From a virus (Duplodnaviria; Caudoviricetes), in the IMG/VR virus record IMGVR_UViG_3300011113_000522, positions 1 to 61,140 of that record: a stretch of DNA of 61,140 bases; one strand, 5' to 3'. The translations under genes were made by a program, and so were the position numbers. This document shows, piece by piece, positions 1,464-61,140 of the stretch. The notes under the pieces were generated by a model, which was not told the origin of the DNA, made no database searches, and worked only from the letters and a program-made list of their open reading frames with translations. Each line of letters starts with the position of its first letter. Position 1 is the stretch's first letter.

Positions 1464-2041
1464 AAATTTTTGATATTAAAAATCCAAAACATGTACAAAT
1501 TCTTAAGGAAGAATTACATAGAGCTAAACGTATTCTTCGCGAATATAATGAAGCTGAAATTTGGAAGCGCTTAACGGTGCAACAACGTGAAGAATTATTA
1601 TCTTCAGTAGATGATGATATGGGTCCGGATTTTGCTGATGAATATGCAGAGGAGGATTGGATGCAAATACCAGATGCTATTACAAATCGCATTGATATAA
1701 GTAGATATACAGCTGATTATGTACGTTCAGTTGATAAAAGCGCTTTGATGTATGCACGTGGTATTTTTGATATTATATTTGACGAAGCTCGATTTAAAAA
1801 TACTAAAGAACTTCAAAAATTTATTGCTAATAAAATTGGTACTACATCTACAGAGCCTGAAACAATGAAGGCTGCACTAATACAATATGCACGAGATAAT
1901 TCTGCAAACATGATGAAACTAAATGTTGAAACACAACGTATGGCGCAATCTGCAATGGGTAGCAGTGGTACGTTTGGTGGCGAAACAAAACCATCTCGAG
2001 ATCCATTTTATGGTGGCGGAGCTGAGTGGACTGGTGACTGA
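1460..2041 (+). CDS. Hypothetical protein
   Basis: 193-aa ORF; ATGA overlap with the upstream gene; ILKEE/ILREY motifs. Confidence 0.7.
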   Translation: MKIFDIKNPKHVQILKEELHRAKRILREYNEAEIWKRLTVQQREELLSSVDDDMGPDFADEYAEEDWMQIPDAITNRIDISRYTADYVRSVDKSALMYARGIFDIIFDEARFKNTKELQKFIANKIGTTSTEPETMKAALIQYARDNSANMMKLNVETQRMAQSAMGSSGTFGGETKPSRDPFYGGGAEWTGD

Positions 2042-10338: not shown

Positions 10339-11001
10339 TTATTGGCCAGCTGGCACGTATTTAGTACCAGCACCTGGTCCATATGGTTGACCGTCAACAT
10401 GTTTTAATGCTGCGCGCATTGCATCACCACTATCACCTAATGGCAAATGTGTATATATACCACCTTGTGTAACTACGGCGTTAGACAAAGAAGGATACCA
10501 TACAACATTAGACTGTATGCCGGTAACCGGTTTTCCTTTGTGTTTATATGTACCCGCTGCTAATTGAGTCGCCATGGTATTATTACTTAATGCACCAGAA
10601 TCAATGAATGCATTCCAACCGCCAAAATCATCATAATTATAAACTTTTGCAGCACAAAATGCTACGGTTAGGCTTGGAGATACATACCACGTGGCACCTT
10701 TAGCTACAGCAGCAAATTTAGTTTTTTCCAATCCATAACTTGTAATCATATCGCTAGGTTGTGTATATGTTGCTCCTGGTTTGAGTATTGCAACTGATAA
10801 AAATCCATCATTTTTTTCAGCTAATACATTTTTAGCAGTTGTCATCCAAGCTGGATCTGCTGCGGCTTCTGCTTCCATTATTAATCCTTGCCGTACAGCT
10901 CCATGCAAACCATGCTCATTAATGGTTTCTATGACTGATTTAAGAACCGATTGTCTTTGCATTGCAAATGGCAACGCGTTTTTTAAAAATAAATTTTTCA
11001 T
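10339..11001 (-). CDS. Hypothetical protein, paralog of 9592..10272
   Basis: Same shared motifs; identical AAGGAAACAAACAAATG leader. Confidence 0.8.
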   Translation of the reverse strand: MKNLFLKNALPFAMQRQSVLKSVIETINEHGLHGAVRQGLIMEAEAAADPAWMTTAKNVLAEKNDGFLSVAILKPGATYTQPSDMITSYGLEKTKFAAVAKGATWYVSPSLTVAFCAAKVYNYDDFGGWNAFIDSGALSNNTMATQLAAGTYKHKGKPVTGIQSNVVWYPSLSNAVVTQGGIYTHLPLGDSGDAMRAALKHVDGQPYGPGAGTKYVPAGQ

Positions 11002-11083
11002 TTGTTTGTTTCCTTTATAGGTTTTTTATATATATGTTCTTGTTATCAATAATAAATATGTTTCAAAAAAAAAGTAATGCAAT

Positions 11084-11112
11084 TTGGATTTTTCATTTTT
11101 TTTACATAATAT
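11084..11112 (+). promoter_or_regulatory. Putative early/middle promoter TTGGAT-N17-TAATAT
   Basis: Matches the class; upstream of uvsE. Confidence 0.55.
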
Positions 11113-11126
11113 AAAATAAAACATAT

Positions 11127-12152
11127 ATGATACGTTATGGTTATGCCTGTATCAACATGGAGTTATCCGCCCAGGGTATTCGTACCGGTCGTGCCATGAT
11201 TGATCGCAAATTCAAACTTGGTGGTTTACGGCTTGCATCTGATATTGCACTTGCCAATGCCCGCGATTTACTTATTATTCTGCAATGGAATGAAGCACGC
11301 GGCATTCGTTTGTTTCGTTTAGGTTCTGAGCTCTTTCCCCGTTGGAATCATTACGAGCTTGCAGATTTACCTGACATTGATCTTATTGCACAGCATCTTC
11401 GTGCCGCAGGTGACTTTGCTCGTGCACATGGTCATCGCATTACAACGCATCCTGGTCCATTTCATATCTTAGGTAGTCCTGATGCTGTAGTTGTTGATAA
11501 TTCTATCGTTGGTCTTGAACGACATTCTGAGCTCTTTGATATGATGGGCTTTGCTCCTAGCTTTGAAAACAAGATCAATATTCACGTAGGTGCTACTTAC
11601 AATGACAAGCCCGGCACCATTGCACGGTGGTTGCATAACTATGATCGGCTTTCAGATTCTTGCAAGGCACGTTTAGTTATTGAGAATGATGACAAGGCAT
11701 CTATGTATTCCGTACGCGAATTGTATTCTATGCTACATGCAGAAATTGCTATACCTATTACGTTTGACTATTGGCATCACACATTCAATACTGGTGACAT
11801 CAGCGAACAAGAAGCATTCTTTATGGCGCGTGAGACTTGGCAACGTCATGGTGTGACACAATGTACTCATTACAGTGAATCCCGTCGACGTGAAGCACAA
11901 ATTCTTATCGAGCGTATGTTTGCACATCACAACATTGACATTGCCGACTTGCCCAATTGGCCTACCTTTCACAAACAATACAAAGAGTTTACCAAGATCA
12001 AGGAGCAGGCTCATGCTGACTATATCACACAGCTTCCGAATACATATGGTGTTGCAGATCTCGATGTTATGGTTGAGGCAAAGGCTAAAGAACAATCATT
12101 GATTGCATTGAATGTTGAATGTTGTCAAAACACCCAATTAATATTAGAATAA
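11127..12152 (+). CDS. uvsE: UV damage endonuclease UvsE/UVDE
   Basis: GYACIN, FRLGSELFP, HPGPF, NIHVG, LVIENDDK, FDYWHH, HYSES, AHADY, DVMVEAKAKE. Confidence 0.93.
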   Translation: MIRYGYACINMELSAQGIRTGRAMIDRKFKLGGLRLASDIALANARDLLIILQWNEARGIRLFRLGSELFPRWNHYELADLPDIDLIAQHLRAAGDFARAHGHRITTHPGPFHILGSPDAVVVDNSIVGLERHSELFDMMGFAPSFENKINIHVGATYNDKPGTIARWLHNYDRLSDSCKARLVIENDDKASMYSVRELYSMLHAEIAIPITFDYWHHTFNTGDISEQEAFFMARETWQRHGVTQCTHYSESRRREAQILIERMFAHHNIDIADLPNWPTFHKQYKEFTKIKEQAHADYITQLPNTYGVADLDVMVEAKAKEQSLIALNVECCQNTQLILE

Positions 12153-30272: not shown

Positions 30273-32618
30273 ATGTCAATGCTTTTAGAAAATCTCATAC
30301 GAACATACTTAATTGAAGGACGTACGGTCGCTAAAATACGCGGTGCATCTGCAAAAGATACTGCAGCAGCTCGTGCTGCAGGAGCGGTATATGCATACAA
30401 TGTTTTAGTTAAAGGGACTAAAAATCAAGATGAAATTATTGATTTAGTTCAAGCGGCAACATTAGCATCTACTGGCGTTGACACAGAAAATAGAATAGCA
30501 GTTGGACAGTCTAGCAAATTTGCACGTGGTGATTATGTTTATGTAATGAGTGACCCATTACCGAAAAAACGACAAATTATCGTTGTAAGAATTTTTAAAT
30601 TAACTGATATTACAAAAAATCATCTCAATTTCACGAATGTTATAGCTAGTTATGAACTTGCTGGAAGTATCGGAGGAGCTGATTTTTTTACTGCAACTAT
30701 GTTTAAACAACTCTTAATTGGCGAAAAACAAGATACAACTCCCGTTGATGATTTAAAAAGTAAAGATTCAGAGGCAAGTGATGTAATTAAACAGGCATCT
30801 GACTTGTTAGCAGGAAATGAACAAGTTACAAATCATGAATTAAAACGTGATGGTATAGTTGTTGGTAAATTCAATGGTACTATAGATAAAAATGGATTAC
30901 CGCTTGAAGGAAAAGCAGAGTTAAATGATGGACAAGTATTTGATGGTAAATTCAAAGATGGTAAATTTATTACTGGTTCTTGCAAGCAAATAATATCTAA
31001 TGGTGATATTTTTGAAGGTGAGTTAACGGATGGTGTACCAACTGCAAATGTTACGCATCATATAACAAAACCGGATGGTAAGTATTATGAAGGTACAGTT
31101 AATTCAAGCTTTTTACCTATTGACGGTAGTGTATATTCATCATCTGCTAAAACCGAAAAGATTGGTGATTTTATATTAGGAGCATGGACTGCAGTTGAAA
31201 AACCTTTATTTACTAATCAACAAATTATTGATGCAACAAACTCATCAAAATATAGTGATGCAACAAAATATTTTCAACAGCTGATGGTTGATAAAATTGG
31301 TACTCAACCTGAAATTGTTTCGTTACTTGCGGATACGGATAATAATATGAGTAATACATATACTAAAGTAAAAAACAACGTTGATGGTAAATGGGGTGAC
31401 AATTCTAAATCATTAACAAAAGATATGCAATTCATATTAGGATTACCAGAAACTGGTATTGTTACTTCTGATTTCATAGATAAAATTGCTAACTTTGACA
31501 AACAAACGGTATCATCTACAGAAACAACAAAAACAGAATCTATATTAAATGTAAAAAATACGTTGTTAGAGCAAATTGATCTAGATTCGATTAGAAAACG
31601 AGCGGCTATTAGAAAAGTTACACCACCGCCGCCGACACCAAAACCTAAACCAACGCCGACACCAAAACCAAAACCTAAACCTAAACCAACGCCGACATCA
31701 TATAAAGATCAATATATTTTACAAAAAGATTATGAACTTCAATACGTCAAAGGTTCAGCTGATAAATTTTTGTCTGCATTAAAAGCTTGGGAGTCTCCTG
31801 CAGGTTATGCAAGTTCAATGGGATGGGGCGAAACACCTAGTACCAGATCGTTTGCGAAACAAAAAATATTTGATCGTAAAACAATTAAAATACCAAAAGG
31901 TACTATAGTATATATACAACCCGGTAAAGTTATTATTAATGTACCAAGTGAAAGTGATACAGGTGGTATTATACCCAATTGGCATTTTGAATTTACATAT
32001 ACGGATAATTTCTTAAGAACAAATTCATATTATAACATATGGAAACAATACGATACCCAACAAAAACAAGAGTGGAAGACTGCAAAAAAGTTAGGAATTC
32101 AAAACGTTAAATTTGCGGAACCAAAATATCAAAATGATAAATTAATCAAATTTTTGAAAACATTGAATCCATTAGTTCAAAACAGAATAAAATTTGAAAA
32201 AGAATTGTCTAAAGAACAAAGAATTCAATTGAATGATGAGTTTAATCGATGCATACAAATTGCGAAAGATTTTTATGAATTATTTGAAAAAAATCCTAAA
32301 AAATATTTTGGTCGTTATAAAGGTTCATCATGGATTCCAGGAGACCAAGATTTACCCGGAGCATTGAACTATTTGCAAGATGCTGTTAGGGATGCATATG
32401 AAGATGAATTTAAATTATTAACAAAATCAAGCAATTTAGATATACAAAATAATGTAAAAAAATTACACGATATATATACTGGCGTACAACAATATATAAT
32501 TGATTTAATTAGAACTAACGGAAATAAACGTTTAATTACAACGTTTAGAATTAAATTAGTTCATCCATATGATTCAAAGAAGAATACTAACGTAACAATT
32601 AAGTTTGATTATTTATGA
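30273..32618 (+). CDS. Multidomain protein: MORN-like repeats, peptidoglycan-binding-like motif, Pro/Thr/Lys linker, shared C-terminal domain
   Basis: DGQVFDGKFKDG, NGDIFEGEL and DGKYYEG repeats; VDGKWGDNS...LGLPETG; PTPKPK linker. Confidence 0.7.
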   Translation: MSMLLENLIRTYLIEGRTVAKIRGASAKDTAAARAAGAVYAYNVLVKGTKNQDEIIDLVQAATLASTGVDTENRIAVGQSSKFARGDYVYVMSDPLPKKRQIIVVRIFKLTDITKNHLNFTNVIASYELAGSIGGADFFTATMFKQLLIGEKQDTTPVDDLKSKDSEASDVIKQASDLLAGNEQVTNHELKRDGIVVGKFNGTIDKNGLPLEGKAELNDGQVFDGKFKDGKFITGSCKQIISNGDIFEGELTDGVPTANVTHHITKPDGKYYEGTVNSSFLPIDGSVYSSSAKTEKIGDFILGAWTAVEKPLFTNQQIIDATNSSKYSDATKYFQQLMVDKIGTQPEIVSLLADTDNNMSNTYTKVKNNVDGKWGDNSKSLTKDMQFILGLPETGIVTSDFIDKIANFDKQTVSSTETTKTESILNVKNTLLEQIDLDSIRKRAAIRKVTPPPPTPKPKPTPTPKPKPKPKPTPTSYKDQYILQKDYELQYVKGSADKFLSALKAWESPAGYASSMGWGETPSTRSFAKQKIFDRKTIKIPKGTIVYIQPGKVIINVPSESDTGGIIPNWHFEFTYTDNFLRTNSYYNIWKQYDTQQKQEWKTAKKLGIQNVKFAEPKYQNDKLIKFLKTLNPLVQNRIKFEKELSKEQRIQLNDEFNRCIQIAKDFYELFEKNPKKYFGRYKGSSWIPGDQDLPGALNYLQDAVRDAYEDEFKLLTKSSNLDIQNNVKKLHDIYTGVQQYIIDLIRTNGNKRLITTFRIKLVHPYDSKKNTNVTIKFDYL
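31620..31697 (+). repeat. Pro-Thr-Lys coding repeat (linker)
   Basis: Repeated ccgacaccaaaacc/aaacct units encoding PPPPTPKPKPTPTPKPKPKPKPTPT. Confidence 0.8.
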
Positions 32619-33382
32619 TACGATTAACGCATTTACTTACAGAACAAACCGACGCTGTTAAGTTTTGTAAAAAAAATATTTTATCTAAACCACAGTTTTC
32701 TAAAGAAAAATGGAGTGAAATTGGCGTATGGGGAAATCGAAATATTGCTGGCACTTCAACAAAATCTCAGCATGCAGTTGGAAATGCTATTGATTGGCAC
32801 GGAGCAAAAGGTGTCGGCGATCCGGTTATGCAAGAATTAGCAGATTATTTAGTAGCAAATCATTCTGTATATTCTGCTGAAAATATAATCTACAATAGGC
32901 GCATTTGGAATTCTCCAAAAGGCTGGCACGTATATAAAGGAGAAAATCCACATATAGATCATGTACATATTGATTTTAAAACTACCGCTAAATTAAAAAA
33001 TAACAATGTTCAAAAAAACAATGACATTGTGCAACAAGCGCTATGGGATATGTATAATAAAACAACAAAAAATCCCGAAAAATATTTTAAACAATATAAA
33101 GGCCAATGGTGGATACCTGGAGATGATAAACCAGAAGCTGCTGCAAAAAAATTAAAAAGTTTATTTTTTAATACGTGGTATGATCGTTTACTTAAAATAT
33201 ATTCATTTGGTACTGCTGAAGATAAAAAAAATATCAATTGGTTAACTAAAGCCGTTAACGATGTAGCAAAGTTAATTGAAACTGGCCAGTCTGGACAAGT
33301 TCCTGTAAAATTTTTAAAATGGAATGCACAAAATCAAACATATAAATTAATCAAGCAAAAGTTCAATTGGACTTATATGTAA
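32615..33382 (+). CDS. Zn peptidase of the M15/Hedgehog-DD-peptidase fold plus shared C-terminal domain
   Basis: SQHAVGNAID and HIDHVHIDF zinc-ligand motifs. Confidence 0.7.
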   Translation: MIRLTHLLTEQTDAVKFCKKNILSKPQFSKEKWSEIGVWGNRNIAGTSTKSQHAVGNAIDWHGAKGVGDPVMQELADYLVANHSVYSAENIIYNRRIWNSPKGWHVYKGENPHIDHVHIDFKTTAKLKNNNVQKNNDIVQQALWDMYNKTTKNPEKYFKQYKGQWWIPGDDKPEAAAKKLKSLFFNTWYDRLLKIYSFGTAEDKKNINWLTKAVNDVAKLIETGQSGQVPVKFLKWNAQNQTYKLIKQKFNWTYM

Positions 33383-33386
33383 AGTT

Positions 33387-33869
33387 ATGAAACGAAATCA
33401 TTTTCACAGCGCTGGAAATTCAAAACGCGCTAATGCTCTTAAACATGGTTATAAATCTGGCCTAGAACATACAGTATCAGAACAAATCAAACAAACGCCA
33501 TATGAACTTCGATATGAAGCAGAAACATTGAATTACATAGTACCAGAACGACGAGCAAAATATACTCCAGATTTTGTATTTACAAAACGTAATGGCGGCA
33601 CTATGTATATTGAAACAAAAGGACGTTGGACTACTGCAGATCGTACTAAAATGAAACATGTTTTACAATCAAATCCTGGAATTGATATACGTATGGTGTT
33701 CCAAAATCCTAATCAAAAATTATCAAAAACATCTCCAACTACATATCAAGCATATGCTCATAAGCTAGGTATTCAACATGTTGCAAAGAAAGATATTCCT
33801 GCGGAATGGTTTGCAGAATGCGTAAAATCTGGCGAAGAACCAGCAAATCCAAAACGTTTTTTTGTTTAA
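33387..33869 (+). CDS. Endonuclease I (T7 gp3-like Holliday junction resolvase)
   Basis: GYKSGLE, YTPDF, IETKGRW...DR.K, DIRMVF. Confidence 0.88.
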   Translation: MKRNHFHSAGNSKRANALKHGYKSGLEHTVSEQIKQTPYELRYEAETLNYIVPERRAKYTPDFVFTKRNGGTMYIETKGRWTTADRTKMKHVLQSNPGIDIRMVFQNPNQKLSKTSPTTYQAYAHKLGIQHVAKKDIPAEWFAECVKSGEEPANPKRFFV

Positions 33870-34015
33870 GGTTTGTTTTTTGAAATATTTTTAATATATT
33901 CATGTAAGTTAATGAAATTTATTTTATTAATAGATTGAAGAATTTATTGATTCAATCGTTAAGCCAGTAATGAAATGTATGTGCTTAACATATATTATAT
34001 ATTAATTATATTCAA

Positions 34016-34044
34016 TTGGATTCCTTACAGTTTTTTATTATAAT
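34016..34044 (+). promoter_or_regulatory. Putative early/middle promoter TTGGAT-N17-TATAAT
   Basis: Perfect -10 box, 17-nt spacer, 5 nt before the primase GTG. Confidence 0.7.
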
Positions 34045-34049
34045 ATAGT

Positions 34050-34991
34050 GTGAAGAATCTTAAACTGTTACAATTATTAGAATCAGTTTTAGGTAAAGGA
34101 AAATCTACTTCCGGCAATAACATTGCATTCTTTTCTCCATTTACTTCACATTACAAACCAAAATTAGAAATTGACGTTAATACTAATCATGCAGGAGAAA
34201 ATCCATGGCATTGTTGGATATCTGATAAAAAAGGTCGAAGCATTTCTAGTTTATTCAAGCAAATGGGCTTGTCAAAAGAATGGTTTGAACAGCTTTCAAA
34301 AATAATTGAATCTGCTAGATATCGAAATACTGCAGAAATAAAATCAACGGTAACATTAGCATTGCCAGAACATTATGTTCCATTATGGAATAAAAAAAAT
34401 ACGCCTGATTATCGCAATGCAATTTATTATTTGCAGCAACGAGGTGTTGCAATATTAGATATTTTAAAGTATCGAATTGGATATTGCGAACAAGGAGAAT
34501 ATTCTGGCAAAATAATTATTCCTAGCTATGATGATGCAGGACAATTAAATTATTTTGTATCTCGAGCATTTTATCGAGCAGACAAACAAAAACATAAAAA
34601 TCCTAAAATATCAAAAGATATCATTGGATTTGATTTGACTATAAATTGGTCACAACCTATCATTCTTTGCGAAGGTGCGTTTGACGCAATTGCAATTAAA
34701 CGCAATGCAATACCGTTATTTGGTAAAATTATTCAACCGGCATTACAAAAGAAAATCATTGAAAAACGTGTACGAGATATCTATATTTGCTTAGATGCTG
34801 ACGCACTTCGCAATGCGGTGCAAATTGCAGAACGATTCATGGCAGAAGGATTAAATGTTTATTTTGTGCGATTGCAAGATGCTGATGCATCAGAATTAGG
34901 TTTTGAACAAATTACAAAAATTATTAACGATACTGATATATTAACATTTGAAGGCATTATGGCTCTCAAAATGGACATGTTATGGACATAA
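34050..34991 (+). CDS. DNA primase (TOPRIM)
   Basis: WHCWIS Zn-ribbon remnant, YLQQRG, IIIPSYD..G.LNYF, CEGAFDA, ICLDADA. Confidence 0.85.
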   Translation: MKNLKLLQLLESVLGKGKSTSGNNIAFFSPFTSHYKPKLEIDVNTNHAGENPWHCWISDKKGRSISSLFKQMGLSKEWFEQLSKIIESARYRNTAEIKSTVTLALPEHYVPLWNKKNTPDYRNAIYYLQQRGVAILDILKYRIGYCEQGEYSGKIIIPSYDDAGQLNYFVSRAFYRADKQKHKNPKISKDIIGFDLTINWSQPIILCEGAFDAIAIKRNAIPLFGKIIQPALQKKIIEKRVRDIYICLDADALRNAVQIAERFMAEGLNVYFVRLQDADASELGFEQITKIINDTDILTFEGIMALKMDMLWT

Positions 34992-37900
34992 AAAAAATTG
35001 AAACTAGAATTGAAAGGATTGATAAAATCTTTCATATATCCGATGTACATATACGTACGTTAAAGCGACACGCTGAATATCGTCAAGTATTTAAAAATTT
35101 ATTTGATTATATTAAAGCAAATAGTACTGCAAATAGTATTGCAGTTGTGACAGGTGATATTGTTCATAGCAAATTAGATATGTCTCCGGAACTAGTTCAG
35201 ATGTTAGTCGATTTCTTCAATGAATTCACAATTCCTACGATTGTTATTTTAGGCAATCACGATATGAATTTGAACAATATGCATCGGGTTGATGCAGTTA
35301 GTCCAGTTTTAGATGTAATTAAAAATCCTAACATTCATTTTATTAAAGACAATGGTTTATTTGAATTAGGCGGGGTTACTTGGAATCATATGGCAGTCGA
35401 TAAAACTCCTGCAGAATACGTACGTGCAAAAGATTTCGTAGCATCTTATAAGATTGCATTGCATCATGGTGCCGTAAATACTGCTCGAACTGATATTGGT
35501 TATCAAATATCAAATGAACATGTTGGTGTTGATTTATTTGAAGGACATGACATTACGTTGTTAGGTGATATTCATAAACCAGCACAGTTTTTAGATGATG
35601 CACGTACAGTTGCATATCCTGGTTCACTTATTCAACAAAATCATGGCGAAGCACTAGATCATGGCATTTTGGTTTGGGATGTAGAACGACGCAGTGCAGA
35701 TTTTGTGCAAATTGAAAACGATTATGGCTATGTAACTATAGAAACTCAAGGCTCTACAATTATATCTTCGCCCCACCGTATGCCAAAACGTCCGCGCATT
35801 CGCATCAAGTTTAATGAAACGAGTGCAGCAGATATGAAACGGTTGATTGCAACAATTCGAAAAAAATATCAAGTAGAAGACATTACAATTCAACGAACTA
35901 TAGGAGCTGCAGCAACTAATGCATCTTCTAGCTTAGCAATTGGAAATGTTCGCGATGTTGAATATCAAAACACCTTATTAACAGAATATATTGATGCAAA
36001 TTATCCACAAGCTACGCCGCAAGAAGTTGATGCTATTAGACACATCAATCGCACAATAAATTCAAAATTGCCAGCAGTAGAATCGATACGACATACTACA
36101 TGGCATCCTATATCATTTGAATTTGATAACATGTTTTCATATGGAGAAGGAAATATATTAAACTTTGATAAACTTTCTGATGTATGTGGACTTTTTGCTG
36201 CAAACGCATCTGGCAAATCAAGTTTACTTGATGCAATTACATACACTATATTTGATAAATGCAGCAAAACAAGCAAAGCAAATGAAGTATTAAACAATAA
36301 AAAAACATGGTTCCGAGGTGTATTTCGTTTTGAGATGAATGGCATAACATATACTATCGAACGACGTGGCACTCAAAATAAAAAGAAAGATACGCACGTC
36401 AAAGTCGATGTAGATTTTTATACTGATTCAGAAAATTTAAATGGCGAAGAACGCAGTGAAACAAATAAAAACATTCGTCGCTATTTAGGCACATATGATG
36501 ATTTTATTTTAACGGCATTTTCATTGCAAGCAGATAACAATAATTTTATTGAAAAGTCACAAAAAGAACGCAAAGATTTGTTATCGCAGTTTTTAGATAT
36601 TACGGTATTTGAACAATTGTATCAACTTGCTGCAGATGAAATCAAAGAAACTGCAGGCCGATTAAAAGATTATAAAAAAACAGACTTTGCTGAAATTATC
36701 GTACAAGCTGATGCAGTAATTACAGAAAATCAAGATACAATCATTTCATTAGAACAGCTTGAAGATCAACAACAAGATCATCGAAATACATTGCAAGAAC
36801 AAATTGTAAGTCTCATTGAAACTAAATTGCCAACAACATACGATGGACCGAATATCAAAGAATTACAATTGCAAGAACGTGCTTTGATTGCTAAGATTGA
36901 GTCAATTCAAACCGAAATAGAATCTGCAGAACAAGAATTAGAAACATTGTCAGAAACAATTGATATATTAGAAACACAATTGGCTGAAATTGATGTAATT
37001 GCAATTCAAGAACAAACACAACAATATCAAACATTAGAATCTAAAGTAAATACTCAACTACAAAAATTTAGACAACATCAGGAGCAAGTAAATGCAAAAC
37101 AAGAAAAAATTAAACATCTCGAATCTCATGAATATGATCCAAACTGCAAATACTGTACATCTAACGTTTTCGTGCAAAATGCAATGGAAGCCCAAAATAC
37201 AATTGATTCGGATAGAGTGTTATTAGAAGAAATGCAACAACTCATTGAAGTTGCAAATGTAGAATTAAATCAATTACGTCCTGTATTTGATACGGTCGAT
37301 CAATATAACAAATTAAAATCTGACATTGCAACTAAAAAAATTACATTAGAACGCAATGAATTGCAACTTCAAATTTTAGAAAGTGATTTACAAACAAGAG
37401 AATCGGAATTAGAAACTACGATTGAACGGCAAGAATCATTTAGAAAAAACGAAACAGCAATTACACACAATCAACTAATTGATTCTTCAATTGAAGAATG
37501 TAAAACTAAAATTGCATCTTGTTCTCAACAAATCAAAATAATTCAAGATCAAATCAAATCATTGTTTGGGTCAATTGAAGTTGCACGTACAAATAAAAGT
37601 TCTGCAATAGAACAATTGGAACGCTATCGACAACTCGAAACAGAATACAAAGCATATGAGTATTATTTAGAATCAGTTAAACGCAATGGCATTCCGTATG
37701 AATTAGTTGCAAAAGCTATTCCTAAAATTGAGTCTGAAATCAATAATGTTCTCAATCAAATTGTTGAATTTAATATGGTGTTAAATACCGATGGCAAAAA
37801 TATCAATGGATATATTATTTACGATGAAGATAATTATTGGCCATTGGAATTAACATCCGGTATGGAACGATTTATTTCATCACTAGCAATTCGCATTGCA

Positions 37901-38128
37901 CTTATCAATGTTTCGGCATTGCCTCGTCCTAATTTTATTGCGATTGACGAAGGCTGGGGTTCATTAGATGCAGAACATATTTCTTCAGTAGTAAATTTAT
38001 TTGAATATTTTCGTACAAAATTTGATTTTTCAATCATTATATCACACGTTGATTCTATGCGCGATATGGTTGATAATTTAATTGAAGTTAACAAACAAAG
38101 CGGATTCAGCAAGATTAGTTGTGTGTAA
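34982..38128 (+). CDS. Fused Mre11/SbcD nuclease and Rad50/SbcC ATPase (T4 gp47+gp46-like)
   Basis: SDVHI, TGDIVH, GNHD, LGDIH, YPGS phosphoesterase motifs; ANASGKSS Walker A; CKYC hook; TSGME signature; IDEG; IISH. Confidence 0.9.
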   Translation: MDIKKIETRIERIDKIFHISDVHIRTLKRHAEYRQVFKNLFDYIKANSTANSIAVVTGDIVHSKLDMSPELVQMLVDFFNEFTIPTIVILGNHDMNLNNMHRVDAVSPVLDVIKNPNIHFIKDNGLFELGGVTWNHMAVDKTPAEYVRAKDFVASYKIALHHGAVNTARTDIGYQISNEHVGVDLFEGHDITLLGDIHKPAQFLDDARTVAYPGSLIQQNHGEALDHGILVWDVERRSADFVQIENDYGYVTIETQGSTIISSPHRMPKRPRIRIKFNETSAADMKRLIATIRKKYQVEDITIQRTIGAAATNASSSLAIGNVRDVEYQNTLLTEYIDANYPQATPQEVDAIRHINRTINSKLPAVESIRHTTWHPISFEFDNMFSYGEGNILNFDKLSDVCGLFAANASGKSSLLDAITYTIFDKCSKTSKANEVLNNKKTWFRGVFRFEMNGITYTIERRGTQNKKKDTHVKVDVDFYTDSENLNGEERSETNKNIRRYLGTYDDFILTAFSLQADNNNFIEKSQKERKDLLSQFLDITVFEQLYQLAADEIKETAGRLKDYKKTDFAEIIVQADAVITENQDTIISLEQLEDQQQDHRNTLQEQIVSLIETKLPTTYDGPNIKELQLQERALIAKIESIQTEIESAEQELETLSETIDILETQLAEIDVIAIQEQTQQYQTLESKVNTQLQKFRQHQEQVNAKQEKIKHLESHEYDPNCKYCTSNVFVQNAMEAQNTIDSDRVLLEEMQQLIEVANVELNQLRPVFDTVDQYNKLKSDIATKKITLERNELQLQILESDLQTRESELETTIERQESFRKNETAITHNQLIDSSIEECKTKIASCSQQIKIIQDQIKSLFGSIEVARTNKSSAIEQLERYRQLETEYKAYEYYLESVKRNGIPYELVAKAIPKIESEINNVLNQIVEFNMVLNTDGKNINGYIIYDEDNYWPLELTSGMERFISSLAIRIALINVSALPRPNFIAIDEGWGSLDAEHISSVVNLFEYFRTKFDFSIIISHVDSMRDMVDNLIEVNKQSGFSKISCV

Positions 38129-42893: not shown

Positions 42894-43874
42894 ATGGCTG
42901 AACGACACAAAAGCAAGTATAAAAAACCAGAAAATTCAAAACCTACTCGTCGAAAAGATATTACAGATTATACGCACGATGATAAAGCAGGAGCACTGAA
43001 TCCATATTCTACAGGAAAACGTCAAGAAAAAGTTGCTAGAAAAACAGATAAACCAATTCAAGATGATGGAAAAATGTTTCCTAAATATACTGAAAAAGAT
43101 CGTTTATATAAAAAAATTGAAGATGGCGATTATGATCCAAAACATGCAATGAATGTTTTACGTAAACGTCAAGAAACAGATACTGATGAATATTTTGATA
43201 CACGCGAAAAAATTGATCATGGCGTAACAACATCAGAATTGAAAGAACGAATTAATCAATTATCTCCAAAACAACGAGAACAATTGATTAGAGAATACTT
43301 ACGTAGAAAAATAGCTAAAGTATTGCGCGAACAACCCGAACAACCAACCGATCCAGAACAAGAGACAACAGAACAACCCGGTGGCGCTACACCTGGAGGA
43401 GATGCAGCCGGCGGCGCTACACCCGGAGGTGCTACACCTGCAGGAGCTGGAGGAGCTGCACCTGGAGGAGCTGGAGGTGCTACACCCGCACCCGGAGGTG
43501 CTGCCGCACCCGGAGGTGCTGGAGGTGCTACACCTGGAGGTACTACACCCACACCTGGAGGTGCCGGAGGAGCTGCACCTGGAGGTGCTACACCCGCACC
43601 CGGAGGTGCTGGAGGAGCTGCACCCGATGATCAAAATAAAGAAGAACAACAATCAAAAGCGTTAACACAAGTTGTGCAAACATTAACTAAAGAACCAGGT
43701 TCTCAAGGCAAAATTGATTTCATAATGAAATCTTTTGATGCCGTATATAAAGATGCGGATGTTAGAGATACTAGAAATTTCTTAAAATTATTAAGACGTA
43801 CGATTAACAAAAAATTAATAAAGTTAGGCTCGCAATCAATCAACCGAGCGCAAAATTTGCTTAACAACCGTTAA
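42894..43874 (+). CDS. Hypothetical protein with Gly/Ala/Pro low-complexity repeat
   Basis: 326 aa; LIREY and VLREQ motifs precede the repeat. Confidence 0.7.
   Translation: MAERHKSKYKKPENSKPTRRKDITDYTHDDKAGALNPYSTGKRQEKVARKTDKPIQDDGKMFPKYTEKDRLYKKIEDGDYDPKHAMNVLRKRQETDTDEYFDTREKIDHGVTTSELKERINQLSPKQREQLIREYLRRKIAKVLREQPEQPTDPEQETTEQPGGATPGGDAAGGATPGGATPAGAGGAAPGGAGGATPAPGGAAAPGGAGGATPGGTTPTPGGAGGAAPGGATPAPGGAGGAAPDDQNKEEQQSKALTQVVQTLTKEPGSQGKIDFIMKSFDAVYKDADVRDTRNFLKLLRRTINKKLIKLGSQSINRAQNLLNNR
43378..43626 (+). repeat. GC-rich coding tandem repeat (PGGAxxGGAT)n
   Basis: Recurrent cacctggagg, cccggaggtgct and gctacaccc units. Confidence 0.85.
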
Positions 43875-52103: not shown

Positions 52104-52238
52104 ACTGGTTTTTCAATTGATGTTATATTTATTTTAGAATACGCTATTCATTCTTTATATAGCGTTTATATGTAATTATTTATATTCTATTAAGATTCTA
52201 ATAATCTTATTTCCAAAAAACAAATTTAAGGAGAAAAA

Positions 52239-55382: not shown

Positions 55383-56048
55383 ATGTCTACGCAAAATCGA
55401 GAAAAAACGCCGCCGAAATCTGATGTTAAGTTTTCAATTACATTATCAGAAGAACAAAAACAAGCAAAAGCAAAAATATTAGAAACGCCATTTAATTTTA
55501 TTTTAGGTAAAGCTGGATCTGGAAAAACATTGTTAGCAGTACAAGTTGCATTGGATATGTTTTTTAAACGACAAATCAACAAAATTATTATAACTCGGCC
55601 AACTGTATCAAATGAAGATAATGGATTTCTTCCTGGATCATTGGCAGAAAAAATGGATCCATGGTTAGTTCCATTGCGTAGCAATATGCGCAAAGTTTAT
55701 AATAAACCAGATATTTTAGATAAAATGGAACGAGAAGAAAATATCGAATTAGTTTCTTTAGCACATTTTCGAGGACGTACATTTGATCATGCAGTTTGTA
55801 TTGTAGATGAATTTCAAAATTTAACCAAACAACAACTTCAAATGGTTGTATCTCGTTTAGGAAAAGAAAGCATCATGATACTTACAGGCGATCGATATCA
55901 AATAGACTTAAAATTTGGAAATGATTCTGCAGTGCACGAAGTACCTAAATTAACCAAATCAAAATATGTTAATGAAATCATATTATTAGATAATCATAGA
56001 CATGAATCATTAAATGAAATTTTAAAACTTCTAAACGAAACGTACTGA
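55383..56048 (+). CDS. phoH: PhoH-family ATPase
   Basis: GKAGSGKT, ITRP.V, GFLPG...EK, RGRTF, VDEFQN, TGD..Q.D, NHRH. Confidence 0.93.
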   Translation: MSTQNREKTPPKSDVKFSITLSEEQKQAKAKILETPFNFILGKAGSGKTLLAVQVALDMFFKRQINKIIITRPTVSNEDNGFLPGSLAEKMDPWLVPLRSNMRKVYNKPDILDKMEREENIELVSLAHFRGRTFDHAVCIVDEFQNLTKQQLQMVVSRLGKESIMILTGDRYQIDLKFGNDSAVHEVPKLTKSKYVNEIILLDNHRHESLNEILKLLNETY

Positions 56049-59383: not shown

Positions 59384-59415
59384 TGCCCATATTTATATAA
59401 AATAGGAACATAACA

Positions 59416-59985
59416 ATGGCAACATGGAAAAAGGTAATAGTATCCGGAAGTAACATTTCACAATTGAATAATGATGCGGGCTATATAATATCTGCTATAT
59501 CTTCATCTGTATTATCATCGCCAGCACAAGGCGAAGCACGACTTACTAATAATGGCGTTGCTGGATCTATTATTGATTTAGGTTTACAAACAGGAGACTC
59601 TCCTACATTTGTTGGATTAACATTGACAGGCGATTTAGTTGTACTAGGCACGGCTTCATTTCAAAATACTGCTAATTTACTTGTTGCAGATCGATTTGTA
59701 TTGTTTGCATCAGGCTCTAATACTGCAGGCGATGGTGGTATTGTAGTTCAACAAGGTACGCAAAATATTGGTGAATTGTATGGTTATGATTCTGGTACAA
59801 CGCGTTGGGGATTTACGTCATCATTTGCAGCTTCATCGAATTCATTTACGCCGGTAGTATATGCAGGTGCAGTAGAAACAAGCGTTACAGCACCGTCCCC
59901 GGCACCAATATATGGTGGTTCGGGTAATGGATATGGTACAATACACGTTGATACGTTGAGTGGAGATATTTACATTTATTCTTAA
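59416..59985 (+). CDS. Tail-fibre-related protein
   Basis: MATWKKVIVSGSN N-terminus; PTFVGLTLTGDLVVLG; DGGIVV. Confidence 0.65.
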   Translation: MATWKKVIVSGSNISQLNNDAGYIISAISSSVLSSPAQGEARLTNNGVAGSIIDLGLQTGDSPTFVGLTLTGDLVVLGTASFQNTANLLVADRFVLFASGSNTAGDGGIVVQQGTQNIGELYGYDSGTTRWGFTSSFAASSNSFTPVVYAGAVETSVTAPSPAPIYGGSGNGYGTIHVDTLSGDIYIYS

Positions 59986-59992
59986 AAAAGTT

Positions 59993-60169
59993 ATGAGCAT
60001 AATCGACAAATTAAAATCAAAAACAGAAACAAAAACAGCCTCACAATTATCAAAACAAGAAATTGAATTTTTGTTAGTGCTACTTAAGGATGTTTCTATT
60101 CGTGGAGAACAAGTAGAAACGTTTTACAATATCATATTGAAATTGCAAGAACAATATCTAAAACAGTGA
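59993..60169 (+). CDS. Small helical protein (possible fibre chaperone)
   Basis: MSIIDKLK...LSKQEIEFLL; AAGTTATG start. Confidence 0.6.
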   Translation: MSIIDKLKSKTETKTASQLSKQEIEFLLVLLKDVSIRGEQVETFYNIILKLQEQYLKQ

Positions 60170-60181
60170 TATTTATTATAA

Positions 60182-60245
60182 ATGTTGTAGGCCGCAAGGA
60201 AGTGGGCACACGCACGGCATAAGTGTATGTAACCAACCACAACAT
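60182..60245 (+). ncRNA. Candidate structured cis-regulatory RNA in a tail-fibre gene leader
   Basis: Closing stem AUGUUGU(A)GG/CCACAACAU, CC-GCAA-GG hairpin and a second hairpin; GC-rich island in AT-rich intergenic DNA. Confidence 0.55.
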
Positions 60246-60259
60246 GAAAGGAAAACGAT

Positions 60260-61140
60260 ATGCCGTCTTGGAAAAAAGTCATTACATCTGGCTCTAATGC
60301 CTCGCTAAATTCTTTATATGCTCCTAGCATAACTGGATCATTATTAGGAACAGCATCTTTTGCTATATCCGCATCATATGCACTAACAGCATCATATTCA
60401 AATAATTTACAAATATCAGGTTCAATCAATAATGTAGATTATATTGACTTTAATACAGGATCTGCTACACCTACTTGGAAATCGGGTAGAGTATTTTGGG
60501 ATAATACCGATGGATGTTTAAATGTATATAATGCTGAAGCTGATATTACTTTACAAGTAGGACAAGAAAATTGGACTAAAGTTAGAAATAATACCGGAAC
60601 ATCGATAACAAATGGTACAATTGTAAAAATTATAGGAGCACAAGGCGATGTTCCTACGGTAGAAAGAGCACAGTCTGTAGCTAAATCTGGTAGTATAAAT
60701 ATAGATACGCAGATACTAGGTGTTGCAACGCATACTATTGAAAATAATTCAATTGGGTATGTAACAACTCAAGGATTAGTAAGAGGTTTAAATACGAATG
60801 CATTTAATGATGGCGATACTTTATTTGTAGGTACTGCATCTTCCGGAGTATTGCAAAATACGGCTCCTGTCGCACCATATGAAATTATTCCTGTAGGGGT
60901 TTGCGTTAAAGCAAGTCCTGGTGGAAGTGGTATTATATATGTTGCTGTACAACAACCATTAGACTTTTCCGATTTAAGCACCGTACAAAAGTCAGGCTCT
61001 TACAGTTATGGAGATTTGTGGACTTATGTTCCAAGCGGATCTTTCGGTGTTTGGAAACACACTAATCAACTATCAGGCTCATACGGCGTAACCGGGTCAT
61101 TCTCAGTACAAGACAGCATTGATTCTAGCAATAAATGGTT
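60260..61140 (+). CDS. Tail fibre protein, 3' truncated by the window end (not in ORF track)
   Basis: MPSWKKVITSGSNASL...TGSLLGTASFAISASYALTASY...LQVGQE...NNTGTSITNGT...GYVTTQGLVRGLNT; SD AAAGGA. Confidence 0.8.
   Translation, partial: MPSWKKVITSGSNASLNSLYAPSITGSLLGTASFAISASYALTASYSNNLQISGSINNVDYIDFNTGSATPTWKSGRVFWDNTDGCLNVYNAEADITLQVGQENWTKVRNNTGTSITNGTIVKIIGAQGDVPTVERAQSVAKSGSINIDTQILGVATHTIENNSIGYVTTQGLVRGLNTNAFNDGDTLFVGTASSGVLQNTAPVAPYEIIPVGVCVKASPGGSGIIYVAVQQPLDFSDLSTVQKSGSYSYGDLWTYVPSGSFGVWKHTNQLSGSYGVTGSFSVQDSIDSSNKW

Follow-up and report, generated by a model that had tools for sequence, protein, structure and literature searches.

A covarying three-way junction RNA in the leader of a tail-fibre-like gene family of uncultured phages

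Comparative analysis indicates that the 64 nucleotides at positions 60182–60245 of an uncultured-virus record fold as a three-way junction RNA, located in the leader of a gene for a tail-fibre-like protein. The same structure was recovered ahead of the homologous genes of related phage contigs, with compensatory changes in its stems, and on the evidence of these alignments the covarying structure is a real RNA element. It appears to be an RNA motif outside any catalogued family; its general kind, a cis-acting structured leader, is a known one. In the following, the window denotes the whole stretch analysed, which is the record itself (61,140 nt), with an estimated completeness of 36%. The window encodes T4-like structural and packaging proteins (baseplate wedge, large terminase, portal, major head, and an SbcC-like nuclease), and the RNA element lies at its right-hand end, between an ORF for a 58-aa protein and the fibre-like ORF (Table 1). 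In a tblastn search, residues 30–269 of the fibre-like protein matched proteins annotated in cultured phages as tail fibre or tail proteins, with 32–41% identity.

Structure and covariation of the element

The minimum-free-energy fold of the element is identical to the structure drawn from the window sequence in the preliminary description, and RNAalifold returned the same 20 pairs from an alignment of 30 relatives, so that P1, P2, the pairing at the junction, and P3 are all present as drawn. In our reading, a single register of P3 would fit all copies, with C60207 paired to G60229 and U60230 unpaired. The element had also been described as a GC-rich island starting 5 nt after the box, which agrees with a GC content of 0.43–0.50 in 60-nt windows over the element vs 0.22–0.30 just upstream. 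Likewise, P1 does end just before a Shine–Dalgarno (SD)-like stretch, with GAAAGGAAAA directly 3′ of P1 and the ATG at position 60260.

Table 1. Features of the RNA element and its surroundings in the window
Feature	Positions	Strand	Remarks
Small helical protein, 58 aa	59993–60169	+	Stop codon abuts the box; in relatives, the family is directly upstream of the RNA motif
Late-promoter-like box ATATTTAT (60169–60176), then TATAAA	60169–60182	+	5 nt between the box and A60182
P1, 5′ strand, AUGUUGU-A-GG	60182–60191	+	Pairs with 60237–60245; A60189 bulged
P2 hairpin, CC-GCAA-GG	60192–60199	+	
J2/3, AAG	60200–60202	+	Unpaired, conserved; of 41 sequences collected via the gene start, 40 have AAG and L036 has GAG
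P3, overall	60203–60235	+	P3a, internal loop, and P3b
P3a	60203–60205 (UGG), 60233–60235 (CCA)	+	UGG pairs with CCA
P3 internal loop	G60206 C60207, A60231 A60232	+	Small and conserved; the two sides face each other
P3b	60208–60215, 60223–60230	+	One C·A mismatch; loop GGCAUAA at 60216–60222
J3/1 (A60236) and P1, 3′ strand (CCACAACAU, C60237–U60245)	60236–60245	+	From RNAalifold and pair counts
Short A-rich spacer with SD-like AAAGGAAA	60246–60259	+	
UAUGCCGU, includes the start codon	60259–60266	+	Complementary to ACGGCAUA (60214–60221), at the top of P3
Fibre-like gene (MPSWKKVITSGS...)	60260–61140	+	Runs past the window end; residues 30–269 similar to tail fibre proteins

Single-sequence fold scores were uninformative. 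The stability of the window copy was near chance (z = −1.14, with 29 of 200 shuffled sequences folding as well; z = −0.24 with flanks), and taken alone, the observation could have been chance. The structure is regarded as more than chance because of the pairing and covariation found in its relatives.

These relatives were collected with protein-guided searches of IMG/VR, in which the N-terminal part of the fibre protein and a neighbouring 408-aa protein served as queries and 160 loci were obtained. With positions 60140–60290 as the blastn query, the leader was found in 51 of the 160 loci (32 distinct sequences, 76–93% identity), including some whose fibre proteins were only ~30% identical. In the 30-sequence alignment, 97.7% of the cells were standard pairs, compared with 22.9–46.1% when the 3′ partners were slid, and the covariation score was reached by none of 500 shuffles; the count of pairs with changes on both sides was less extreme and was matched in 21 of 500 shuffles. 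Two pattern scans of IMG/VR, with at least 120 matches each, together with the earlier loci, gave at least 124 distinct full-length copies. In 124 distinct sequences, 93.8% of the cells were paired (26.7–44.5% with slid partners), 249 cells had changes on both sides, and the covariation score was matched by none of 500 shuffles.

Many two-sided changes in the 124 sequences were located in P1, P2, and P3a. Each of the five inner variable pairs of P1 occurred as three to five standard pair types (one of them as A–U in 60, G–C in 56, and U–A in 6 sequences), and the G–C pair adjoining P2 was replaced by A–U in eight sequences gathered by protein homology. The third pair of P2 was C–G in 55 sequences and U–A in 16, a P2 C–G pair was changed to U–A in L066, and the P2 loops of the relatives were GCAA, GAAA, GUAA, UUCG, UCCG, UUUU, or longer ones, so that GNRA and UUCG loops were swapped for one another. 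The middle pair of P3a was G–C in 77 of the 124 sequences and A–U in 47, and it was broken in none. The top of P3 varied freely: at its smallest it was a 5-nt loop on a single closing pair and at its largest a hairpin of ~26 nt, and it consisted of unrelated stems that still paired.

A near-invariant core of ~24 nt (GGCC...GGAAGURGRC...GUAWCYAACC) is located at the junction, although its invariance in the 124-sequence set is partly by construction, because GGCC, GGAAGURGRC, and UAWCYAACC were part of the pattern used for the search. Among the sequences collected through the gene start alone, the core was still nearly constant, and its invariant pairs covaried (GACC...AAUC, n = 8; GGCU...AG, n = 1). 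G–U pairs were frequent on the plus strand, such as U–G in 44 of 124 sequences at one P1 pair. Because these would be C–A on the other strand, they show the sense RNA to be the folded strand.

These observations bear on the possibility that the stretch is not an RNA element but DNA that, with the stretch coding for the protein N-terminus, is conserved only as a constant left arm through which fibre genes are exchanged by recombination. DNA identity across the leader and the ~30 initial codons is 91–93% in loci where the fibre proteins are otherwise ~30% identical (for example, L064, L079, and L081), as might be expected of such an arm, and homing endonuclease genes have been inserted here in two lineages. 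However, a recombination arm does not yield compensatory changes that preserve pairing, tetraloop swaps, strand-specific G–U pairs, or hairpins of variable length between fixed segments. The covariation counts already contradict this explanation, and we give it almost no credence.

The upstream box, gene linkage, and spread

The box upstream of the element, ATATTTAT, occurs 23 times on the plus strand and four times on the minus strand of the window (for example, at positions 56048, 59389, and 60169), with an extended consensus of ATATTTAT-WWW-AAA. Nineteen of the 23 plus-strand boxes are outside the listed plus-strand ORFs, which leave 13.9% of the window uncovered (binomial, 2.6e-13), and 13 are located 8–40 nt before the next ATG. 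Across the 30-sequence alignment, the box was invariant except for a C at the first base in two sequences. It may therefore represent a late-promoter consensus of this phage group; it differs from the T4 late box, and our search of open-access papers and preprints found no description of it as a phage promoter. The element had been placed, in the preliminary description, between a late promoter and the SD sequence of a tail-fibre gene. Its position, the recurrence of the box, and the fibre likeness of the gene all agree with this placement, whereas the promoter function of the box is presumptive. In the other box-bearing genes, many of them structural, the distance from the box to the ATG is 14–27 nt; in the fibre gene it is 83 nt, and the difference is the element. 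Because the other boxed genes have only these short leaders, the element looks like a fibre-gene-specific insert.

One other unusually long leader was noted in the window (positions 52125–52238; 106 nt from box to ATG). It contains several predicted hairpins (single-sequence z = −1.1), and the gene that it precedes, located just before the major head gene, encodes an acidic-repeat protein of 356 aa. Coding tandem repeats within ORFs were also observed, at positions 43378–43620 (Gly/Ala/Pro/Thr-rich, in periodic units of 9–24 nt) and 31632–31700 (a Pro/Thr/Lys-rich 12-nt unit).

A second, shorter gene at positions 59416–59985 has the same WKKV-type N-terminus (MATWKKVIVSGS) as the fibre-like gene, and a box with a 19-nt leader without the RNA motif. 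It is a speculation that the two WKKV-type fibres share an attachment site, so that the RNA leader could set their ratio. A small share of a 1.7-kb stretch was present in six metatranscriptome RNA runs, and the RNA contigs from four of these runs span only positions 59411–59898 and 61105–61140, with the element outside this coverage. In two runs, contigs begin at position 59411 or 59412, which is 15–16 nt past the box at 59389–59396 and 4–5 nt before the ATG. These contigs are of read length, with a depth of 2–3, which is too low to call a transcript start, and they were given no weight.

A covariance model built from the 30-sequence alignment found one copy in the window (89.2 bits; next best, 12.3), and neither the model nor a repeat search detected a second copy there. 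One copy was likewise found in each of 79 sources and in each of five large related contigs of 101–160 kb, of which the 160-kb contig is 95% complete. The ORF after the motif starts with MPxW in 64 of 67 distinct copies, and the exceptions are a locus end, a GTG start, and an inserted gene. When 43 distinct MPxWKK gene starts identified by protein homology were considered, the relaxed core was present within 170 nt upstream in 42, and a variant of the motif was recognised by eye at the 43rd (L057), which places the motif ahead of all 43. P1 begins 5–12 nt after the box in 64 of 66 copies, and of the 64 copies preceding an MPxW gene, 59 have 6–17 nt between the ATG and the end of the motif as given by the model. 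The spacer region contains AGGAGG in some relatives and no such element in others. The relative that is 95% complete has the motif at the head of a ~5.5-kb unit with four genes (720, 270, 743, and 78 aa), after which the next box follows.

In some lineages, the motif and the fibre gene have been moved apart. In four loci (L036, L037, L265, and L178), ~105 nt lie between the motif and the ATG, yet the motif is 6–7 nt from the box; in this lineage, the DNA ahead of the fibre start codon contains an additional conserved segment after the motif, for which a separate hairpin is predicted. In L237, a homing-endonuclease-like ORF (10525–11247, minus strand) with NUMOD1 (E = 4e-13) and a weak GIY-YIG is inserted directly after the motif, ahead of the fibre gene. 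In L167, an HNH homing-endonuclease-like ORF (1553–1795, minus strand; E = 1.4e-4) directly follows the motif, ahead of the fibre gene, and this insert has taken over the first three codons of the fibre gene (MPN). In such loci, it is the 5′ end, and not the ribosome-binding site, that the motif accompanies. Because it stays with the box when the ATG moves away, a role at the 5′ end or during transcription is favoured over gating of the ribosome-binding site by these loci.

One such role would be that of a 5′-terminal stabiliser or processing barrier, in which a stable structure at the 5′ end, or inside a read-through transcript, protects the long fibre mRNA from 5′-end-dependent decay with no specific partner. 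Stem-loops at the 5′ end are established protectors of other mRNAs, and the narrow range of distances between the box and P1 would place a stem close to the presumed transcription start. The persistence of the motif beside the box, even where an insert or a homing endonuclease gene separates it from the fibre ATG, and its position at the head of the ~5.5-kb unit are also in line with a protective function. However, such a function needs only a stable stem, and it leaves the near-invariant junction nucleotides amid the covarying stems unexplained; moreover, other long boxed units in the window, such as that at positions 30273–38128, are without the element. A stabiliser is, in our judgement, distinctly unlikely.

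The nascent leader might instead act during transcription, alone or with a small phage protein, by modifying RNA polymerase for read-through of the fibre operon. Lambda nut and HK022 put are leader RNAs that act on the transcribing polymerase, and the element resembles them, as it does 5′ stem-loop stabilisers, in following directly on a phage promoter (here, a promoter-like box) and heading a long operon. It keeps this position when the ATG moves away, and a conserved small, basic-tailed helical protein is always encoded beside it. No sequence or structural likeness to the nut and put RNAs is evident. In the window, the only terminator-like site after the element (positions 60471–60489) is at chance level (2 found vs 1.2 expected), and other operons with the same box lack the element. 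We consider this kind of antitermination very unlikely.

In the collections sampled, the motif was found only in phage contigs. Among cultured phages, blastn searches gave no match with the 1.7-kb region, a single 19-nt chance match with the window leader, and one unrelated 52-nt match and none, respectively, with the variant leaders of L165 and L179. Of cultured phages, the two nearest in protein comparison are Microcystis phage Mel-JY01 and a Flavobacterium phage, and both are without the pattern. In bacterial and archaeal genomes searched with a loose pattern, none of the at least 120 matches listed passed nhmmer or a stricter pattern. The match L288 was rejected as a copy, as it has no flanking GGCC or P1 features and by eye resembles coding sequence. 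In 401 sampled Bacteroidota genomes, there were 8 pattern matches vs 12 for a reversed control, and no real copy; six of the 8 were scored with the covariance model and reached at most 13.7 bits.

RNA type and possible function

A cmscan search of positions 59900–60500 against Rfam 15, with permissive filters and E ≤ 10, returned six chance-level rows and no family matching the element. The only row touching it was SNORD12, on the minus strand (60217–60300; 15 bits vs a gathering score of 43; E = 6.4). Ten other copies, in 41 kb of related loci, had no Rfam match at E ≤ 1. A loose likeness to the c-di-GMP-II riboswitch had been suggested from the window sequence, and it was not borne out: the covariance models of that and every other Rfam family failed to match the window copy (E ≤ 10) or the ten others (E ≤ 1). 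What stands of the original regulatory reading is the kind, a regulatory RNA, and not the riboswitch or c-di-GMP-II specifics. Other RNA types were also set aside. ARAGORN found no tRNA or tmRNA gene in the whole window, and the GGCAUAA loop of P3 was rejected as an anticodon-loop mimic, as the loop is not conserved across the family. An intrinsic terminator or attenuator was rejected as well: P1 is followed by GAAAGGAAAA, and a scan found no terminator-like site at the element. Our search of open-access papers and preprints found no description of such a motif before tail-fibre genes.

A riboswitch nevertheless deserves consideration as a functional class. The junction would then recognise, as an aptamer, a second messenger or metabolite of the host, and the ligand would stabilise P1 or, in some lineages, the pairing of the P3 loop with the start region, thereby switching translation of the fibre operon. 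The element is a conserved, structured, covarying domain situated in a 5′ leader, and it shares with three-way-junction riboswitch aptamers, c-di-GMP-II included, a size of ~50–70 nt, a P1 next to the ribosome-binding site, a conserved junction (with unpaired AAG, R, UAW, and A), and variable hairpin tips. Riboswitches are described from large phages, as rare occurrences (PMC9004378). Unlike those aptamers, the element has no Rfam riboswitch match, and it is present as a single copy, which in this group of phages always precedes the same gene family. An expression platform was not clearly recognisable: P1 abuts the ribosome-binding site, and complementarity between the loop and the start region exists in only three hairpin lineages; no terminator is located at the element, and conserved alternative pairing was not found. 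In the cellular genomes sampled, it does not precede functionally related genes, with no real copy among the bacterial and archaeal matches listed or in the Bacteroidota genomes, and no metabolic connection between a ligand and the fibre gene is obvious. On balance, a riboswitch seems rather unlikely. A phage-private riboswitch class, through which a large lytic phage would let a host metabolite or signalling nucleotide set, late in infection, the amount of one of its two alternative WKKV-anchored fibres, has a low probability in our estimation. If it were true, the receptor-binding equipment of the progeny would be tuned to host physiology.

Riboswitch aptamers and ribozymes would show an invariant junction and variable peripheral hairpins just as well, which weighs against the protein-docked leader favoured below. 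Phages commonly carry several classes of small ribozymes, and a compact junction with invariant unpaired nucleotides, carried by phages, might belong to a new self-cleaving class that trims the leader. However, the element matches no known ribozyme family, and its single fixed context and single copy are unlike those of known small ribozymes. We regard self-cleavage as highly improbable.

The hairpin P3 offers a possible connection to translation. In the window, UAUGCCGU and ACGGCAUA can form 8 contiguous Watson–Crick pairs, which were reached by none of 500 hairpin shuffles (the hairpin and its target are identical to those of L245). Complementarity to the start region at p ≤ 0.05 was found for 15 of 83 distinct P3 hairpins, with ~4 expected, and the complementary hairpins represent three lineages (GGCAUA/UAUGCC, ACUCACU/AGUGAGU, and CGGCAU/AUGCCG). 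This complementarity suggests that the P3 loop can pair with the start codon in the lineage of the window. Loop-to-start pairing as a universal feature was rejected, as most P3 tops are short and have no complementarity to the start region.

The explanation that we tentatively favour, with somewhat less than even confidence, is that the element is a gene-specific cis-acting 5′ leader of the late fibre-operon transcript. Its junction would bind a partner, for which a protein is a likelier candidate than a metabolite, and would thereby set the output of the fibre operon, probably at translation initiation. Like an operator, it is a structured, sequence-specific leader element next to the initiation region. 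Transcription would start at the A-run of the ATATTTAT box, placing the junction within a few nucleotides of the mRNA 5′ end, and the invariant junction would serve as the docking site for a specific phage or host protein. Specific recognition is suggested because the junction is invariant, which a mere stable stem would not need, and a macromolecular partner is favoured over a general metabolite because the element is single-copy, is restricted to one gene family, and is found only in phage contigs. Binding of the partner would alter the yield of fibre protein, most probably by gating access of the 30S subunit; in the lineage of the window, the P3 loop might also pair with the start codon, and in an independent lineage, a different P3 loop might pair with the complementary stretch just upstream of its AUG. 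Control of initiation is suggested because the foot of P1 is only ~8–19 nt from the AUG, inside the ribosome footprint in most copies, and because of the complementarity between P3 and the start region. Against translational control stand the ~105-nt insert of the four loci, the homing endonuclease genes of the two lineages, and the many hairpins without complementarity. Our confidence in a protein-docked translational leader stays below even because the motif, when separated, keeps to the 5′ end.

The gene directly upstream of the motif encodes a small protein in the relatives as well: homologues of at most 100 aa were detected there in 61 distinct forms, 46 of which were aligned. These proteins (49–95 aa) share the core L-T-x-x-E ... 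I-x-G-x-D-A ... K-L, and the 95%-complete relative has two tandem paralogues (L450, 3635–4011). AlphaFold2 predicted two helices for the 58-aa protein of the window (pLDDT, 81), and searches of Pfam, PHROGs, PDB profiles, and Foldseek gave neither a usable name for the family nor a fold match. The small protein could be a fibre chaperone or the partner of the RNA. No covariation of the RNA type with the N-terminus of the fibre was evident by eye.

Relation to known phage leaders and significance

Structured leaders of single genes are known from T4-type phages. The pseudoknot of gene 32 (67 nt upstream of the AUG) and the hairpin of gene 43 are autogenous translational operators, and genes 38 and 25 have split initiation regions, in which RNA structure between the SD sequence and the AUG sets the effective spacing (PMC3014915). 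The operators of genes 32 and 43 are similar to the element in being structured, sequence-specific, lineage-limited 5′ leaders of one gene near the initiation region, and the phage carrying the element is also a T4-like myovirus. The element differs from them in being a three-way junction and not a pseudoknot or simple hairpin, and has no sequence or covariance-model similarity to them. Furthermore, genes 32 and 43 serve replication, whereas the element precedes a late structural fibre gene, and its partner is a presumed one. In genes 38 and 25, an RNA structure conserved only within a phage subgroup is likewise located in the initiation region of a late gene related to the tail or fibre. In contrast, the element is upstream of the SD-like stretch and spacer, not between the SD sequence and the AUG, and its fold is not that of a simple hairpin but a junction built around an invariant core.

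In practical terms, the motif may help annotators to locate where the fibre operon begins in phages of this group, with ATATTTAT as a candidate late-promoter consensus. With a size of 50–70 nt, a sharply defined core, and many natural variants, the element lends itself well to structure determination, to pull-downs, and to probing in vitro. It would represent a new riboswitch class if a metabolite were its partner, or a new ribozyme class if it were self-cleaving. Most of the known structured leaders that control single phage genes belong to a small number of T4 replication genes, and a junction RNA at the head of a fibre operon would be a new regulatory point. It would bear on the dosage or timing of the host-recognition apparatus of a lytic phage, across a large uncultured group from freshwater and other environments.
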